From IMG/VR virus record IMGVR_UViG_3300027234_000002, positions 4,470-68,469 of that record: 64,000 nucleotides of DNA; one strand, given 5' to 3'. This DNA comes from a virus. Taxonomy: Duplodnaviria; Caudoviricetes. Below are positions 6,390 through 63,864 of this stretch, piece by piece; positions within the stretch are counted from its first letter, which is position 1, and every line of letters starts with the position of its first letter. The notes under the pieces were generated by a model. The model ran no database searches and was not told the origin of the DNA. It saw only the letters and a list, made by a program, of their open reading frames with translations. The position numbers were made by a program, and so were the translations under genes.

Positions 6390-7499
6390 ATGGATAGTAC
6401 TGAAATTATTAAAAGCTTTTTGAGGAAGAAGAGTAGTTATTTGAATTGGGGTAATAAGGGAATTCAAGGAGCATTAAGTAAAAAATTTAATGGACGCATA
6501 TTTAATCTGGAAGACATTAAAAAAGTCAAGAAGGAATTAAAAAAGGAATTTAAGAATCACATGAGAGTTGGTTCACAACCAGAAAAAGTGGGCGTAGCAT
6601 CAGAAAATGCAGAAGCTATTGCTGAACTCTCAAAGATTGCTGGGAAACTAGGTCTTAAACTAATTGATAAAAGTGTTGACGTTACTGCCGGTGCATCTAT
6701 ATTAAAAAGAAAGAAAGCTTTGAAAGCATTTCATGTTCCAGAAATATCTGATCAAGTTGGAATGCATATTATGCTTGGGTGTAATCACGTACCATTTCAT
6801 AATGTTCAATTGCACAGAAGTATCATTGAATTAATAAAAGACTATCCTGAACTAATAAAAGGATTTCACTTAATGGGTGACTTCTTAGACTTGAATCCAT
6901 TATCATCTCATGATAGAGGTAGATTTACAGCTGTTCCAGGACTAACACTTGATGATGAGTATGCTGTAGGAAATGAACTATTAGATGACTTTGATAGACA
7001 TCTTCCTAGAGGATGTTGGAAAACTTTTCTGTATGGTAATCATGAAGACAGGTACAACAGGTGGATGTCAGTAATGGATAATGCAAAAACTCCATTAGAT
7101 TCTCCAGAAGATGCACTTAAGCTTTGGCGTAGAGGGTATAATGTAAAAGATAAATGGAGCCAAGACTATATCACATTAGGAAATGACTTCCAGATCTTTC
7201 ACGGGATATATTTTAATATCCATAACGCTAAGAAACATTTAGATACATTCGGAAAGAGTTGTGCTTATGTACACACTCACAGAGTTCAAATGTATAGAGA
7301 AGGACCTAACGCTGCTTACAATATAGGTACTTGCGCTAATCTTAAATCTAAAGTATTTGGATACGCAACAAGAGCTATGAAGGAGAGTTGGTCAAATGGA
7401 TTTGCAATAAACATGATAGATGATTATGGCAATTGTCATATAACACAAATAGTTCCTGATGAATCCGGAAGATTCTGGTTTGGTGGAAAATATTATTAA
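6390..7499 (+). CDS. Calcineurin-like metallophosphoesterase with a basic N-terminal extension (likely start ATG 6390)
   Basis: GDFLD, GNHEDR, FHG and HTHR motifs; first motif reads GCNH; the track TTG start at 6366 lies inside the -7 promoter box. Confidence 0.8.
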   Translation: MDSTEIIKSFLRKKSSYLNWGNKGIQGALSKKFNGRIFNLEDIKKVKKELKKEFKNHMRVGSQPEKVGVASENAEAIAELSKIAGKLGLKLIDKSVDVTAGASILKRKKALKAFHVPEISDQVGMHIMLGCNHVPFHNVQLHRSIIELIKDYPELIKGFHLMGDFLDLNPLSSHDRGRFTAVPGLTLDDEYAVGNELLDDFDRHLPRGCWKTFLYGNHEDRYNRWMSVMDNAKTPLDSPEDALKLWRRGYNVKDKWSQDYITLGNDFQIFHGIYFNIHNAKKHLDTFGKSCAYVHTHRVQMYREGPNAAYNIGTCANLKSKVFGYATRAMKESWSNGFAINMIDDYGNCHITQIVPDESGRFWFGGKYY

Positions 7500-57428: not shown

Positions 57429-57456
57429 TTTTTAATTATTTTTATAATATTAATAT

Positions 57457-58268
57457 TTTAGCACCCTTTCCCATTATTGTATTCAACTCTATCCTTGATA
57501 GAGGCAATAATGAGGGTTGGGTCATGTTTCACTGTTATTATTACCCTCGACACGAGCACTATCTATCTGCTTGATAATAATAATAACAATGTTTTTCTGC
57601 TGAGAACTCATTTCTACTGCAAACGGTAGTTAGTTTGGCACTCTCATCCTTTCTCAAGGGACCAGTAAATCTAGCATTCCTGCCAGTATCTTTATATAAA
57701 TAACAAAGAAGTTTTAACGCTTCCGACAAATGTTATTTATACAGGTATTCAATGTTTAACCTTATTTAGCACCCTCTTTCTTATTAGATGTTTTCTGTTC
57801 TCGTTTATTTCAACGCTTGTGAATTTCACACTGTAATCTAATAAGAGTAGGGTCACGTAGTTAAGTCATTGACATAAAGATAGAATCAAATCTATCTCAG
57901 TTAAAAGGTTATACCTATCTCCCTTAATCAAAACTACTTGCTGAGAACTCATTTGTGTTGTATAGAACCAATATTCTATTCTTGTATTTGACGGTATGCA
58001 CTTTCTCAAGGTGTACAACACATCCAGGATTACTCCATTACTTACGTATTAATAGGTTACTGTATTAGCCTTCACCTATAATTACCATTTACCAAGTAGA
58101 ACAATCTAATTTCTTTCTACACCTTATTAGAGCCTCTTCACTCTTTCCTCAGTAACATCCTGTCAATTCAGGATTAGTATCTTTATGTAAATGTACGGGT
58201 CAAACCCTCTTTCATACAGCATTACCTGTTAATGGACTACATTTACAAAGGTTTCAATGTTTAACCTT
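57457..58268 (-). ncRNA. Tandem duplicated three-motif structured RNA array (candidate ncRNA or long leader)
   Basis: Motif I at 58176-58268 and 57685-57763; motif II at 57939-58022 and 57598-57669; motif III at 57765-57855 and 57457-57524; identical cores, compensatory stems, no ORF in the track. Confidence 0.7.
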
Positions 58269-58342
58269 TATTTTTAGTGCTTAAATGCACAATTATGTCT
58301 CTGCTCCAGCCTATACAGTAGAAGCATTGACATTTTGATTTA

Positions 58343-58438
58343 TTATCCATTTATTATTATTCCATTAAATAAATTTGCAAACAGCAAATATAATATAACT
58401 ATTGCTATAGCTAAAGTTATTGACTCTTTTTTTTCCAT
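58343..58438 (-). CDS. 31-aa single-pass membrane peptide (not in the ORF track)
   Basis: Hand-translated MEKKESITLAIAIVIIYLLFANLFNGIIING; AT-rich start context. Confidence 0.45.
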   Translation of the reverse strand: MEKKESITLAIAIVILYLLFANLFNGIIING

Positions 58439-58456
58439 AATTAATGGTGTTAAATA

Positions 58457-58966: not shown

Positions 58967-59346
58967 TATTCTTCAAATTTAATTGTTCTTTTTTCTATTT
59001 TTTTTATTATCTTAAAATTTTCAAAGAAATCTCTTGGTGAATATCTACCTAAGTTCTTGACGGTGATTAAATTTCTATCCTCATCAACTTTCTCAATCTC
59101 TAATATTGTTGAATTTGGCAGTCTTATATCTCCACTAGCTACTAAATCATTTTTTAAGACATACATTTGCTTTGAATCAACATTACTATTTGTACATAAA
59201 TAACCTTTTTTAAGGTTAAGTACTATATCAGTTCTATTTTTACTGATCATTTCCATAAATGCTATTTCAGCTTCAATTTTTCTTACTCTTTCATTATGTT
59301 CATGAATTCTTTGAGCTCTTTTTCTGCCAGATTTAAGCATTTGCAA
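58966..59346 (-). CDS. Hypothetical protein
   Basis: 126-aa ORF. Confidence 0.55.
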   Translation of the reverse strand: MQMLKSGRKRAQRIHEHNERVRKIEAEIAFMEMISKNRTDIVLNLKKGYLCTNSNVDSKQMYVLKNDLVASGDIRLPNSTILEIEKVDEDRNLITVKNLGRYSPRDFFENFKIIKKIEKRTIKFEE

Positions 59347-60027: not shown

Positions 60028-60128
60028 AGAGGTAGATAGGATTTGAACCTATACAAAAACATTGACTAGTTATCTTTGTTTTTATCATTCCCAAACGGGA
60101 ATATGCTTTACCAATTTGCTACTACCTC
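60028..60128 (-). ncRNA. tRNA-like RNA (101 nt) without a canonical anticodon loop
   Basis: Acceptor GAGGTAG/CTACCTC, D-arm GCAAATTGGTAAAGC, T-arm ATAGG-TTCAAAT-CCTAT; anticodon position is a 7-bp stem closing GTTT; ~33-nt extra arm. Confidence 0.6.
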
Positions 60129-60298: not shown

Positions 60299-60322
60299 TT
60301 TTGTAAGTTAGCTTTAATAAAA

Positions 60323-60475
60323 TTAAAGAGATAACTTAATCCCAAGTAATTTATCAACCCAAGCAACATAATTAACTCTATCAAAGAATTTTAAGTGTGT
60401 GCTTACATTGTACATTTCGTCTTTTGTTAATTCTTTGGTATTTTCAACCAATTCTTTTATTTCGTTTATCGTCAT
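60323..60475 (-). CDS. 50-aa hypothetical protein (not in the ORF track)
   Basis: Hand-translated MTINEIKELVENTKELTKDEMYNVSTHLKFFDRVNYVAWVDKLLGIKLSL. Confidence 0.5.
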   Translation of the reverse strand: MTINEIKELVENTKELTKDEMYNVSTHLKFFDRVNYVAWVDKLLGIKLSL

Positions 60476-60502
60476 CTCTTTAATTTAAAAGTTTACTTCG
60501 TC

Positions 60503-60561
60503 AGCTAGCAAAGTATAAAATTCATTTCGTTCCTTAACGCATTTTATACAACACGTTAGGC
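60503..60561 (+). repeat. attC-like site 1 (59 bp, left core degenerate)
   Basis: AGCTAGC-AAA-GTATAAAAT...ATTTTATAC-AACAC-GTTAGGC. Confidence 0.55.
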
Positions 60562-60789
60562 GTAATAATTCCAAAGTTTAATACATCCTACAATAAATCC
60601 TATTACACCCCAAACTGTTGTCCATCCCCACCAAAGTAGTGCTAAATTACTACGCATAACATCGGTTAAAGTTAATTGCTCTTTAGTGTCTTTTTTACAT
60701 TGTTGTATTAAAGCTAAAACCATTGTAACATCTATTCTGTCACTACCATTATTTAAGTATTTTCTAAGTATTTTTTCTAATTTATCCAT
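60556..60789 (-). CDS. Small membrane protein; crosses an attC-like arm and its stop lies in the GTTAGGC core
   Basis: 77 aa; QLTLTDV encoded by the repeat arm; C-terminal TM helix. Confidence 0.6.
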   Translation of the reverse strand: MDKLEKILRKYLNNGSDRIDVTMVLALIQQCKKDTKEQLTLTDVMRSNLALLWWGWTTVWGVIGFIVGCIKLWNYYA

Positions 60790-60849
60790 TTTTATTTATT
60801 AAGTTATTTTTTAATCTACGCAACTAACCTTATTTGCGGTACGTTATAA
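60654..60849 (+). repeat. attC-like site 2 (196 bp; loop contains the start of the 60556-60789 gene)
   Basis: GCATAAC...TAAAGTTAATTGC pairs with GCAACTAACCTTA...GTTATAA (13-bp stem, G-T pairs on the - strand). Confidence 0.45.
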
Positions 60850-60857
60850 TTAATAAA

Positions 60858-60990
60858 AATGCTCGTCTTTCCGAGCTGTCACCTTGCAAAGCCCTGCCAC
60901 CAATTTACAACCTAACTACCTATTTCGGCTAACGCAGTACTCGACACCTGCGGACTACAAGGGTTTGTGGATTCGAACCACTCTCTTCTT
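60858..60990 (-). ncRNA. Candidate structured RNA: T-loop hairpin, multibranch domain and GCTCG-GAAAGA-CGAGC hairpin (possibly Flavo-1-like)
   Basis: GTGG-TTCGAAT-CCAC; CCTTGTA/TGCAAGG; CGCAG/CTGCG; terminal ACAGCTCGGAAAGACGAGC. The Flavo-1 likeness is from memory and unverified. Confidence 0.4.
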
Positions 60991-61036
60991 AAATACAATT
61001 GTAAATTTAAGGTTTATTGTTCATTAAAAAAATATT

Positions 61037-61117
61037 AAGTGGAGTATCCGGCTTTATATTCCAGACATCCAGATTTCACTCACTCGGTTTTATTATGTGA
61101 TAGCTTCAACTCCACTC
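61037..61117 (-). ncRNA. Hammerhead-like three-way junction with variant core
   Basis: Stem I GAGTGGAG/CTCCACTT, TTGAAGC in place of CTGANGA, stem II TCAC/GTGA, GAAA, stem III TCTGG/CCGGA, AUA at the NUH position. Confidence 0.4.
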
Positions 61118-61231
61118 AATTCTTTGCTGTGTTGGTACACTTTAAGCCTTACGAGCAGCTACATTCTCGATAGGGAGTGTATTATTATAACAACTATTCC
61201 ACTATTATAGATGTCATACAAATATTATACT

Positions 61232-61846
61232 TTAATCATCTAATGATGTTACAAGTTCTTTATACCATCTATTACTGTTTTCACAAGCTTGAACTTCTTT
61301 TTTGTATTGTTTTTCATGATACTTGTAATCTTCATTCAAACGATTAAGTTTTCCAGCTCTAATTGAAAATGGGGTAAGTTCTTTTAGATCTCCAAGTAAC
61401 TTCTTGAGTCTCTCAATTCTTTTAGTCTTATATTCAATATCAAAGTCAAAATTAATTGTTTGCACCAATTGATTAACCATGAAATCCTTAAATTCTTGAT
61501 GTTTATCTGTTGGTGGATTAAAGTTTTTAGCATCTTCAAGAATCTTATCAATACCTTTCCTTTTTTCTATAGCTTTAGTAAGATTCTCTTCTTCAAATGC
61601 TATACTTTTTTCACTTGCTGCAACTTTTATAGCAATCAATTCAATATTGCTAGTTTGATTTAATTCAGCAACTCTTTCTTTTATTAGTTTCATCTGATTT
61701 GGATGATAATCTGAAGGCACGCTTGGCGTGTATTCTGTTGCTCCTTCTCTAAATTGAATTAAGAAAGCTTCACTGCATTTTAATGCAAATTCTTTGAAAC
61801 TCTTTATGGTTCCATTAATTATTCCGTTTGTATATCCTGATGACAT
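61232..61846 (-). CDS. Hypothetical protein of a widespread phage family
   Basis: M..GYT..I..G....F.EFA..C..AF N-terminus; coiled coil. Confidence 0.65.
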   Translation of the reverse strand: MSSGYTNGIINGTIKSFKEFALKCSEAFLIQFREGATEYTPSVPSDYHPNQMKLIKERVAELNQTSNIELIAIKVAASEKSIAFEEENLTKAIEKRKGIDKILEDAKNFNPPTDKHQEFKDFMVNQLVQTINFDFDIEYKTKRIERLKKLLGDLKELTPFSIRAGKLNRLNEDYKYHEKQYKKEVQACENSNRWYKELVTSLDD

Positions 61847-61891
61847 AATAATTATTTTTTAAAGTTTATTTTGTTATGGATGTTATTAAAT

Positions 61892-61928
61892 AAAAAAGTG
61901 CCAGGAACATCTCACAAAACCTGGCACT
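61892..61928 (-). terminator. Intrinsic terminator
   Basis: GTGCCAGG/CCTGGCAC stem followed by TTTTTT on the - strand. Confidence 0.7.
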
Positions 61929-62016
61929 CAAACAAATCACTCCCTCACTATCATTGGGAAAATCAAAATTAGTCAATTACATAGTCCACAAAGGTCTGAC
62001 TTAATTATCTTGGATG

Positions 62017-62451
62017 TTAAATGCAAGAGTTTAGATTATATAAATCTAAGTCTGATGCAATCAATTCATCTGTAAATACTCCTTCAGAGAGTTCTACATC
62101 TCTGTATAATCTTTCATTGTTAAAATAGAATGAAGTATAATAATGATCATCTGAATTCATAGATGATACTCTTATTCTTAATACTTCAGTATTACTCTCT
62201 ACTATTTCAATATTCTGAACAGTAGATATATCTATCAATGTGTAACATACTTCAGTTTCTGATATTGATCTTCCACTTGCTTGAACATATTCTCCTTCTT
62301 CATTAAACTTAAAATAGTTTAATGATGATTCTACTTTCCAGCTTTCTTGAGCCGATAACTTGTCTAAAACATTTAGTTCTAGATCTGTGTTTTTTTCACA
62401 ACAACTCATTATTGTTATGATAATAATAAATAATGGTAATAACTTTTTCAT
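62017..62451 (-). CDS. Lipoprotein
   Basis: MKK + hydrophobic core + IMS-C lipobox, acidic residues after the Cys. Confidence 0.7.
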   Translation of the reverse strand: MKKLLPLFIIIITIMSCCEKNTDLELNVLDKLSAQESWKVESSLNYFKFNEEGEYVQASGRSISETEVCYTLIDISTVQNIEIVESNTEVLRIRVSSMNSDDHYYTSFYFNNERLYRDVELSEGVFTDELIASDLDLYNLNSCI

Positions 62452-62478
62452 TTTACTTGGTTTTAAATGTTTATTGAT

Positions 62479-62655
62479 TTAATCAAAGAGTCCATCATGT
62501 CCCGGGCTTATTAAACCTGGATTACTTGATGTATCCTCGATCTGTTTATTTTCTTCTTCTAATGTTGATATTAAATGATATGAATAATCATCTTCTTCTT
62601 CTACACATGATATAAATGCAAATGTAGATAATATTATTAGGAATATTTTTTTCAT
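62479..62655 (-). CDS. 58-aa lipoprotein (not in the ORF track)
   Basis: Hand-translated MKKIFLIILSTFAFIS-C-VEEEDD...; lipobox plus acidic stretch like the Bacteroidota lipoprotein export signal. Confidence 0.6.
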   Translation of the reverse strand: MKKIFLIILSTFAFISCVEEEDDYSYHLISTLEEENKQIEDTSSNPGLISPGHDGLFD

Positions 62656-62738
62656 TATTATTTAATTTTATTTATTTTTAATTAAATTTTACGCTACTAA
62701 TCATACTCTCTAAAGTTGTAAACACATTTAAAAACGTG

Positions 62739-63013
62739 TTACAACATTGCATATACATAATGCTAACTTTCGTCAGCATAAGCCACTACACTTTCTTCAC
62801 AGTTAGGTACAATAAAACTATTTATAAGTTCTAAACTACCTGCAAGTTCATTTACATACTTCTCTAAAGCCTCTTCTTTTGTTTCAGCTTCTACTTCATA
62901 TATAAAAGCAGTTGCTACTAATTCCGTTTCTTTAATCTTAAATTTTGCCATTTCGTTTTATATTTAATTTTCGTTTATTTTAATCGCACTATTCATATAC
63001 CAATACGTTATGT
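62739..63013 (+). repeat. attC-like site 3 (275 bp; loop encloses the whole 62-aa ORF)
   Basis: TTACAAC-ATT-GCATATACATAATGC ... GCACTATTCATATAC-CAATAC-GTTATGT. Confidence 0.6.
62763..62951 (-). CDS. Hypothetical protein (62 aa)
   Basis: EVEAETKEEALEK motif; lies wholly within repeat site 3. Confidence 0.6.
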   Translation of the reverse strand: MAKFKIKETELVATAFIYEVEAETKEEALEKYVNELAGSLELINSFIVPNCEESVVAYADES

Positions 63014-63241
63014 GCCATTTGGAGGAAGCACCATAATGACCTCATCAGGTAAAAAAAGCACTTTTTGCTCTTTCCATTGAAGCTCTAAGTATTTTCCAAC
63101 ATATCCAATCACATTAAAAAACTTGCCCCTATGCTTTTTTTTCTCATTTTCAACTTCGGGTTTTAATCTTACCCAAGAACCAACGGCATATAACAGCACA
63201 TTGGCGTTATTGCTTTGTTCTTCATTTTTAAGTTCTGTCAT
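63008..63241 (-). CDS. Hypothetical protein, SH3/KOW-like
   Basis: NANVLLYAV encoded by an orphan repeat arm; VGSWVRLK...F.VIGY; stop lies in the GTTATGT core. Confidence 0.55.
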   Translation of the reverse strand: MTELKNEEQSNNANVLLYAVGSWVRLKPEVENEKKKHRGKFFNVIGYVGKYLELQWKEQKVLFLPDEVIMVLPPNGT

Positions 63242-63301
63242 ATCTTTAAATTTTGTGTTTCAAATTAAGTTTTCAGAGACACCTACTACAAGCCTTTCGG
63301 C

Positions 63302-63435
63302 ACACAACTATGGTTAAATGTAATACCTATCCAAGTATAACATCCCATTGAGTGTCAAAATTTAAATCTTTCATCGTGTATTATTTAAAGTTATAGTAGA
63401 TTTGTCGGTACTACACTTAGCCGTTTCAGTTGTAA
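63302..63435 (+). repeat. attC-like site 4 (134 bp)
   Basis: ACACAAC-TAT-GGTTAAATGTAATACC ... GGTACTACACTTAGCC-GTTTCA-GTTGTAA. Confidence 0.6.
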
Positions 63436-63439
63436 AACA

Positions 63440-63742
63440 TTAAAGGTTTAGGTCAAAAGACTTCCAACATTTAAAGTTGGTTATTGCATTTAGTTCACTT
63501 ACTTCATCGTATTTTAAACCACTCATCAAGGCTCGTTTTTTATAACCAGCAATAAATGCATCTTTCAAGGTAGGTGTTTCTTTATCTTTTAACGTTTCAC
63601 AACAACGTGTAACAGTAATAGCTTCTGCGTACATTTTTGCAAACTCAAAGACGTTTGTTAGGTTGTCACTTATTCCAGTACTTGTTAGTTCTGTAAATGG
63701 TTTCTTTTCTTGTAAACTTTCGTAAAATTCTTTTGGTGTCAT
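63440..63742 (-). CDS. Hypothetical protein (likely start ATG 63742)
   Basis: ITVTRCC encoded by an orphan repeat arm at 63597-63622. Confidence 0.55.
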   Translation of the reverse strand: MTPKEFYESLQEKKPFTELTSTGISDNLTNVFEFAKMYAEAITVTRCCETLKDKETPTLKDAFIAGYKKRALMSGLKYDEVSELNAITNFKCWKSFDLNL

Positions 63743-63747
63743 AATTT

Positions 63748-63864
63748 CTACCTGTTTATAATCCAACCACTATTTCGGTTGATGGATTTGGTTGAACATT
63801 TTGTAGTTGATGCACAAGAACTGCACAACACTAGCACGATTAATAATACTAATACTTTTTTCAT
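63748..63864 (-). CDS. 38-aa lipopeptide (not in the ORF track)
   Basis: Hand-translated MKKVLVLLIVLVLCSS-C-ASTTKC... Confidence 0.55.
   Translation of the reverse strand: MKKVLVLLIVLVLCSSCASTTKCSTKSINRNSGWIINR

Follow-up and report, generated by a model that had tools for sequence, protein, structure and literature searches.

Genomic Setting

The DNA considered here is a 64,000-nucleotide (nt) stretch of the genome of a marine virus, hereafter the window, which corresponds to bases 4470–68469 of a 68.5-kb IMG/VR virus record (IMGVR_UViG_3300027234_000002) that is about 70% complete. The record has a crAss-like layout, i.e., giant genes on the plus strand followed by a replication and early block on the minus strand, and our subject is the run of small minus-strand open reading frames (ORFs) at the end of the contig, where imperfect inverted repeats with AAC and GTT at their outer edges lie between, around, and within the genes. 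This region is probably an array of gene cassettes that lacks an integrase and whose sites resemble the attC sites of integrons; the cassettes would be excised and inserted within AAC/GTT while the DNA is single-stranded and folded. The same anatomy is conserved, with covariation, in many phages of the Bacteroidota type, and near-identical cassettes stand in different contexts.

Almost none of the small early ORFs match Pfam or PHROGs, and neither megablast nor blastn gave a match for the region among phage records. Locus searches seeded with the proteins of 204 and 108 amino acids (aa) also returned no match, a scan with the conserved intergenic 21-mer together with a metagenome scan returned a single relative, and Rfam matched the tRNAs alone, with nothing for attC-like elements. 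The exact early proteins were found again in JGI, ENA, Logan, and Tara marine assemblies, and exact protein look-up recovered ten near-identical strains. The relative L003, which is 88% identical, carries an entirely different set of small early genes, and what it shares with the window between positions 59000 and 64000 is limited to a single intergenic block and a 78-aa gene.

Inverted Repeats and Cassette Anatomy

A preliminary description of this DNA, made from its letters alone, had listed four imperfect inverted repeats (site 1, 60503–60561; site 2, 60654–60849; site 3, 62739–63013; site 4, 63302–63435) together with several “orphan arms”, and all of these are present. The sites measure 59, 134, 196, and 275 nt, so that two exceed the usual attC range of about 57–141 bp and enclose ORF sequence. 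The stop codons placed inside the core were also read correctly, since TAA at 60556–60558 and at 63008–63010 is followed by C, giving AAC on the gene strand; likewise, a 62-aa ORF (62763–62951) lies wholly within the loop of site 3, and the arms of sites 2 and 4, as well as the arm at 63597–63622, are translated.

In the scheme proposed here, a cassette read along the gene strand begins immediately behind an AAC and consists of a spacer of 4–6 nt, an arm (L′), a loop, the partner arm (L″), a spacer of 2–3 nt, and a box led by GTT (R″). Its last element is a further box (R′) that lies just past a stop codon, has AAC as its final letters, and shows complementarity to R″. The ORF either separates R″ from R′ or occupies or crosses the L loop. 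On this plan, the region is divided as follows.

63429–63622, minus strand: cassette A, distal part, with L″ (63607–63622) and R″ (63591–63603) within a 108-aa ORF (63440–63766)
63429–63441, minus strand: R′ end box of cassette A, directly after the stop codon and ending in AAC at 63429
63007–63428, minus strand: cassette B (site 4 and a 77-aa ORF, 63008–63241), with a spacer (63423–63428), L′ (63407–63422), a loop of about 80 nt, L″ (63312–63327), a 3-nt spacer, R″ (63299–63308), a second R″-like box (63182–63194), and the R′ end box (63007–63019)
62715–63006, minus strand: cassette C (site 3), with L′ (62986–63003), L″ (62747–62763), the 62-aa ORF in the L loop, R″ (62736–62745), a 10-nt loop, and the R′ end box (62715–62725)
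62016–62714, minus strand: unit D, with an L′-type motif (62692–62708) followed by lipoprotein-like 58-aa (62479–62655) and 144-aa (62017–62451) ORFs, ending in TAA-C at 62016
60843–62015, minus strand: interval E, not a cassette, with an intergenic block (61892–62009), a 204-aa ORF (61232–61846), and a 380-nt non-coding stretch, ending in ATAAC at 60843
60555–60842, minus strand: cassette F (site 2), with a 5-nt spacer (60838–60842), L′ (60820–60837), L″ (60664–60679), a 3-nt spacer, R″ (60645–60660), and the R′ end box (60555–60570); the upstream junction is the AAC at 60843–60845
60307–60554, minus strand: cassette G (site 1 and a 50-aa ORF, 60323–60475), with a 5-nt spacer, a hairpin (60513–60549), a 3-nt spacer, a degenerate R″ with GCT for GTT (60499–60509), and the R′ end box (60307–60319), followed by tRNA-Gln

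Unit D and positions 60843–62015 fall outside the cassette scheme, as complementarity scoring found neither an L″ nor an R″ partner in the former and no R″/R′ partner in the latter. In a sister strain, L015, unit D is replaced by two cassettes, its 58-aa and 144-aa genes being swapped for genes of 85 and 52 aa.

The statistical case for this plan comes from an anchored search, in which AAC, 4–6 nt, a stem, 2–3 nt, and GTT had to follow one another, with score thresholds of 8, 9, and 10. The minus strand of the cassette region gave 11, 7, and 5 matches, respectively, against 4.8, 2.3, and 1.15 in shuffled sequence (maxima 9, 6, and 3) and 3, 2, and 1 on the plus strand. At the threshold of 9, the seven matches compare with 2.3 ± 1.35 in the shuffles and with 0–4 in the other 3.4-kb bins of the window on either strand. 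Cassettes B, C, and F scored 12.5, 11, and 13.5, respectively. In B, the L′/L″ pairing reached 12 against 7.5 for the control, and in F the start of the 77-aa ORF (60556–60789) falls within the L loop.

Other details of the preliminary description held in part. The asymmetry of the spacers on the gene strand, with 5–6 nt following AAC and 3 nt preceding GTT, was borne out except at site 3, where the values shift with the choice of arm boundaries (3 and 1 nt in one reading, 6 and 3 nt in the anchored scan). The better folding of the minus strand stands for sites 1–3 when pairs are scored, but not for site 4, and it is weak when DNA energy parameters are used. As to the cores, AAC and GTT are both present in sites 2–4, and their fit to the integron consensus RYYYAAC/GTTRRRY is indeed loose: the full 7-mer occurs in some (GCCTAAC, 60555–60561) and is absent in others (TTACAAC; GCT for GTT in cassette G). 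A TAACGT motif was considered separately and discarded, because it has three local copies, is not enriched in L003, and amounts to a stop codon, core, and spacer.

A recurrent “TAGT-GCG” motif proved to be an L′ arm. Its L″ partner, with GTTGT behind it, is located 76–220 nt downstream and in many cases falls within ORFs that belong to a single family of small proteins. The longer string TTACAAC-N15-TAGTGCG was tried as a promoter and rejected, since its spacing and boxes are unlike both the sigma-70 consensus and the −33/−7 type of consensus found in Bacteroidota, and its TAGT part is an L′ arm that has a partner. Coding segments homologous to cassette A, with the same boxes, were found in L015, L017, L020, and the Polaribacter phage P12002L. 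The ORF at 63440–63766 (minus strand) belongs to a recurrent small-protein family with the motif A-I-(N/T)-(Y/V)-T-x-C-C, whose members (L015, 1424–1681; L017, 1108–1344; L020, 1299–1595; gp37 of P12002L) occur in most of the arrays examined and have the L″ and R″ boxes within their coding sequence.

Complementarity between the Ends of a Cassette

The preliminary description had missed one relationship: every GTT box can pair with the AAC box that closes the same cassette at its opposite end. Because of this pairing, the orphan arms find their place: 60307–60313 is the R′ of cassette G, 63188–63213 the second R″ of B, and 63597–63622 the L″/R″ of A, while 62692–62721 combines the R′ of C with the L′ of D. 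When the R″ and R′ boxes of different cassettes were scored against each other, the cognate pairs of A, B, and F reached 9, 8, and 8 of 10, whereas mismatched pairs were mostly at or below 6; the pair of A was the best of its row, that of B compares with at most 4.5 off the diagonal, and that of F, with 14 of its 16 positions paired overall, with at most 7. The R″ and R′ of cassette C pair as a bulged hairpin (−7.2 kcal/mol, z −2.4, gene strand), and in cassette G the window copy differs from its relatives by a compensatory change of T-A to C-G between the two boxes.

The same holds in a subfamily of shorter hairpins described in the next section, where R″ is complementary to an AAC-ended box located 200–1500 nt downstream, directly after a stop codon. 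The best scores out of 9 were 7.04 downstream, 5.80 upstream, and 3.85 for the adjacent box (Wilcoxon p = 1.2e-4), and a cruder test on the arrays related to the window pointed in the same direction, more weakly (p = 0.012). Since R″ is complementary to the distal box of its own cassette, the two ends of one cassette would make one site, and a circularized cassette would rebuild a complete imperfect palindrome, as in integrons.

A Short Hairpin Subfamily and the Polaribacter Phage P12002L

A 57-nt imperfect palindrome lies between the 5′ AAC and the 52-aa gene, and it comprises, in this order, an outer box ending in AAC, 5 nt, a 10-bp stem, an 11-nt loop, 3 nt, and a box led by GTT. This copy folds better on the gene strand (−8.8 kcal/mol, z −4.6) than on the other one (−5.4 kcal/mol, z −2.3). 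Among 50,697 phage records, its sole match was P12002L, which carries several such elements between its early genes and methyltransferase genes.

A pattern of 21 fixed bases, restricted to the stem ends and the loop so that the flanks were left free, retrieved 57 IMG/VR contigs and 6 contigs from metagenome-assembled genomes (MAGs), five of the six being labeled as Bacteroidota-type. The elements were thus seen almost entirely in viral contigs rather than in arrays of host chromosomes. Their 61 distinct copies are 57–62 nt long, and at least 58 of the 61 have, in the unfixed flanks, AAC 5–7 nt upstream and TGTT 2–3 nt downstream. Pairing in the L stem reaches 98.9%, pairs that the pattern did not force show compensatory changes, and the 3′ arm contains a bulged T. 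In the outer box beyond AAC/GTT, only about 45% of the cells are paired with the adjacent partner. A covariance model built from the 61 copies gave matches in L003, P12002L, L016, L017, L019–L021, L094, L099, L103, and L109, and 17 of the 18 matches in related arrays were on the gene strand. The window sites are variants with long loops, and what speaks for them is the plan, the end complementarity, and the junctions rather than thermodynamics.

One of the P12002L elements is the very sequence that a study of attC sites of virulent phages published as P12002L_attC1 (Qi et al. 2023, PMC9892861). For this site, the gene strand is the one labeled “bottom” by HattCI (PMC9892861, Table S3), which agrees with the inverted orientation of the genes proposed in the preliminary description. 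P12002L_attC2, a neighboring predicted site, did recombine with the integron integrase IntI1 (PMC9892861). Beyond these two predicted sites, our literature search found no description of the family.

Two further motifs deserve mention. The loop motif TCGTTTTAATG recurs in the L loops and in the R″/R′ hairpin loops of unrelated cassettes (L020, 124–134; L099, 1045–1060; L094, 320–335; L028, 6028–6038), with a variant at 62726–62735 of the window. Moreover, cassettes end in 3′ boxes of the form TA(A/G)-TATTAC-NNN-YAAC (e.g., L017, 1046–1058, and window 60555–60567). The sequences TAATATTAC and TAGTATTAC equal the nick-site nonamer of the Rep protein of circular Rep-encoding single-stranded (CRESS) DNA viruses; the junctions lie 7 nt further 3′, and the resemblance is given as a lead only.

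Cassette Junctions in Other Phages

The preliminary description had asked whether gene gains, losses, and reorderings among related phages break at the G|TT core, and this is so for most junctions of the 52-, 50-, and 62-aa cassettes and for the site common to L016 and L026, although some junctions lie elsewhere. At the core, the comparison places a junction to within the AAC/GTT triplet rather than at a particular bond. The 52-aa gene and its leader, as in L015, occur with 99–100% DNA identity in at least six otherwise unrelated contexts; the 3′ junction is directly after TTACAAC in all of them, a few bases past the stop codon, and the 5′ junction is directly after AAC in three. The 62-aa module (62715–63006) was found in four contexts, with similarity that starts 0–3 nt after AAC and stops at GTT, while the 50-aa module (60307–60554), which the relatives L103–L112 also carry, has three contexts in which its 5′ junction follows AAC and four in which its 3′ junction does.

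Two different cassettes, in L016 and L026, share one flank and are joined to it exactly at C|GTTAGC, i.e., at one insertion site; an empty version of the site was searched for the L016 insertion and none was found. Junctions lie exactly at AAC even where the neighbors are otherwise unlike (L016, L018, and L021). These boundaries are independent of assembly chimerism, because the joining of a wrong flank through a shared repeat leaves the edges of the repeat unmoved.

Proposed Mechanism and Search for a Recombinase

By analogy with integrons, cassettes would leave and enter the array through an exchange of strands within AAC/GTT, the DNA being single-stranded and folded, and the two joined ends of one cassette would provide one complete imperfect palindrome. 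The enzyme would be a recombinase without a recognizable gene in the phage, either encoded by the host or new, and the array would serve as a shared and shuffled pool of small early accessory genes.

As the preliminary description had noted for the window, no integrase is present: the 68.5-kb record, about 70% complete, has no match to the tyrosine recombinase family PF00589, which makes the array comparable to a cluster of attC sites lacking integrases (CALIN). A PF00589 match was found in one of ten other records that carry the hairpins.

A mechanism of the IS200/IS605 type, with its gene-less derivatives, was also considered. Those elements have subterminal hairpins at both ends. The phage cassettes are similar in their strand-specific hairpins, in cleavage that would fall beside a short conserved motif set at a constant spacing from the base of the hairpin, and in the lack of an apparent target duplication. 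They have one hairpin body per cassette, however, and no Y1 transposase (TnpA) was found in the five records tested, namely the record of the window, three complete genomes, and P12002L, so this reading was rejected.

Comparison with Integrons

The likeness to attC sites and to CALIN elements extends over several levels. Both are imperfect palindromes in which AAC/GTT boxes lie outside and L arms inside, the unpaired spacer is asymmetric, and one base is extrahelical. In both, the stems vary in sequence and covary, and one strand folds better, which for the phage elements is the gene strand in the 57-nt copy and, as a weak bias, in the window. The junctions at the G|TT or AA|C core, the formation of one site from two cassette ends, the lack of a nearby integrase, and the identity of one family member with P12002L_attC1 are further points in common.

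There are also differences. The strand that carries the phage genes corresponds to the attC bottom strand, whereas integron ORFs are on the top strand with the attC at their 3′ end; the body of the site is 5′ of the ORF, or the ORF is inside the loop, and loops reach about 230 nt. The outer box meets the 7-nt core consensus loosely and is extended to about 13 nt (TATTAC-NNN-YAAC), and some junctions are at the GTT box. A complete integron would include intI and attI beside the array, and this record has no PF00589 match.

Several observations weigh against the integron-like reading, beginning with the sites of the window themselves. The preliminary description had named, as grounds for doubt, stems that are equally frequent in shuffled sequence, and this is the case for an unconstrained stem search, where scores of 24–33 turned up over 35 times in each 3.4 kb of dinucleotide shuffles, though not for the anchored plan. 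Single-stranded DNA folding gave z-scores of −0.1 to −2.4 for the window sites, which do not separate them from shuffles, and the covariance model of the short subfamily found no match in the window at E-values up to 10. The loop motif is conserved, unlike the loops of attC sites, and the folding strand is also the strand of the mRNA, so the covariation could reflect a function of the RNA.

Some junctions also fit poorly. Between the window and L015, similarity breaks off near 62691, just past the L′ motif and about 24 nt beyond an AAC; the 52- and 50-aa cassettes have some 5′ junctions away from the core; and the similarity of the 62-aa module stops at the GTT of R″ and not at the next AAC, which in an integron model would call for recombination of the other strand.

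The last points concern attC models and enzymes. P12002L_attC1 was predicted as attC by HattCI only, the Infernal attC model having failed to detect it, and it gave no verified recombinants with IntI1 (PMC9892861). PF00589 is absent from nine of the ten other hairpin-carrying records, three of which are 100% complete, and PF00239 (serine recombinase) and PF01797 (Y1 transposase) are absent from the record of the window, the same three complete genomes, and P12002L. A search for the integron integrase (TIGR02249), run without a positive control, gave nothing above the cut-off in five hairpin-carrying MAGs or in 87 genomes of one host-type order.

Alternative Explanations

The main competitor, which we consider unlikely but the most serious, is that the elements are regulatory cassettes akin to the promoter early stem-loops (PeSLs) of T4-type phages, i.e., terminator, promoter, or mRNA-stabilizing units exchanged by ordinary or short-homology recombination between repeats rather than site-specifically. 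PeSLs are likewise short repeated stem-loop elements between the small ORFs of hyperplastic early regions, found at the boundaries of insertions, deletions, and replacements between close relatives, and they are reported to flank indels in these phages (Arbiol et al. 2010, PMC2839356; Comeau et al. 2014, PMC4122927). The position of the phage elements between the small ORFs of a hypervariable early region fits this view, as do the several junctions that fall in conserved motifs away from AAC, the recurrence of a ~17-nt L′-type motif 25–40 nt upstream of start codons, and the end box TATTAC-NNN-YAAC, which is common to many cassettes and could supply microhomology.

PeSLs, however, combine a recognizable early promoter with a terminator stem-loop, and no known promoter consensus is seen in the elements described here: by eye, the motif shows neither a sigma-70-like nor a Bacteroidota-type promoter, and a consensus scan found 21 promoter-like sites against 20.9 in shuffles. 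The early transcripts of phage phi14:2 have no known common upstream motif (bioRxiv 10.1101/2020.03.07.982082). Most stems are missing a U-tract, and the intrinsic terminators of the region, at 60861–60876 and near 61890–61930, are outside the claimed sites. The invariant AAC/GTT pair, the spacers of fixed length, the bulged T, and the complementarity of R″ to the end of its own cassette would not be expected of a promoter-terminator unit, and in L016, L018, and L021 the junctions are exactly at AAC although the neighbor has nothing else in common.

A second possibility, to which we give rather little credit, is that the stems act in the RNA only, as RNase III-type processing sites or as elements controlling translation or stability on a polycistronic early transcript, with ordinary mosaicism producing the cassette pattern. 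The better-pairing strand is that of the mRNA, where G-T pairs become G-U, the arms overlap coding sequence, start codons lie in loops, and a loop sequence is conserved. Yet the stems are weak, and this explanation accounts neither for similarity that ends at a 3-nt core in unrelated contexts nor for the match of R″ to its own distal end across up to 1.5 kb. A role at the RNA level may nevertheless be an additional function of the same stems.

That the repeats are chance inverted repeats in AT-rich DNA mixed with ordinary terminators, with nothing in common, agrees with the shuffle-level results of the unconstrained stem search and the folding energies, but this early reading was dropped after the anchored and comparative tests and is now scarcely credible in view of the strand- and region-specific enrichment of the plan, the covariation and conserved flanks in the 61 copies, and the junctions.

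Neighboring Non-coding Features and an Accessory Gene

The surroundings of the cassettes include other features, all on the minus strand. Beside tRNA-Gln, positions 60028–60128 hold a tRNA-like gene that scores 39.7 bits with the Rfam tRNA model without an ARAGORN call, and whose anticodon arm is abnormal and extra arm long. The 380-nt non-coding stretch of interval E (60850–61231) contains a T-arm-like sequence, GGTTCGAATCC, at 60962–60979, besides the terminator at 60861–60876; it has no Rfam match, and similar T-arm-containing non-coding stretches are present in L003 and L021.

The block at 61892–62009 corresponds to positions 7367–7482 of L003, with 78% identity, and is the sole intergenic DNA between 59000 and 64000 that is conserved with this relative. 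Its features are a conserved 5′ part of 45 nt, a small hairpin, and a terminator stem in which a C-G/T-A change is compensatory, and it is a candidate small RNA gene. Further away, a region of about 1 kb without ORFs (57429–58456) consists of two tandem related units with common motifs and is likely a structured RNA. The 204-aa protein encoded at 61232–61846 belongs to phrog_8905, with homologues of 24–30% identity in phages of Pseudomonas, Bacillus, and Caulobacter, and looks like a widely traveled accessory gene.

Significance for Phage Biology

How phages gain and swap small, fast-evolving early genes without known relatives (ORFans) is a long-standing question, and little is known of the mechanism apart from the PeSLs of T4-type phages. 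The elements described here constitute a precise, structured junction common to unrelated phages of one host phylum, and because the short hairpin version was found in 57 viral contigs, they are no single oddity. As a tentative proposal, possible rather than probable in our estimate, phages of Bacteroidota, both marine and other, from crAss-like podoviruses to the siphovirus P12002L may share their own IntI-independent, integron-like exchange system, characterized by folded single-stranded sites, an extended AAC/GTT box, a conserved loop, a putative recombinase that would be host-encoded or a new phage protein, and a common pool of small early genes under rapid shuffling. Since P12002L and its Polaribacter host are in culture, the idea is directly testable. 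If the sites are recombination substrates, they would provide a rule for delimiting cassettes in metagenomes, and exchange in the style of integrons would extend to virulent phages, with a different orientation of the genes and probably with a different enzyme.

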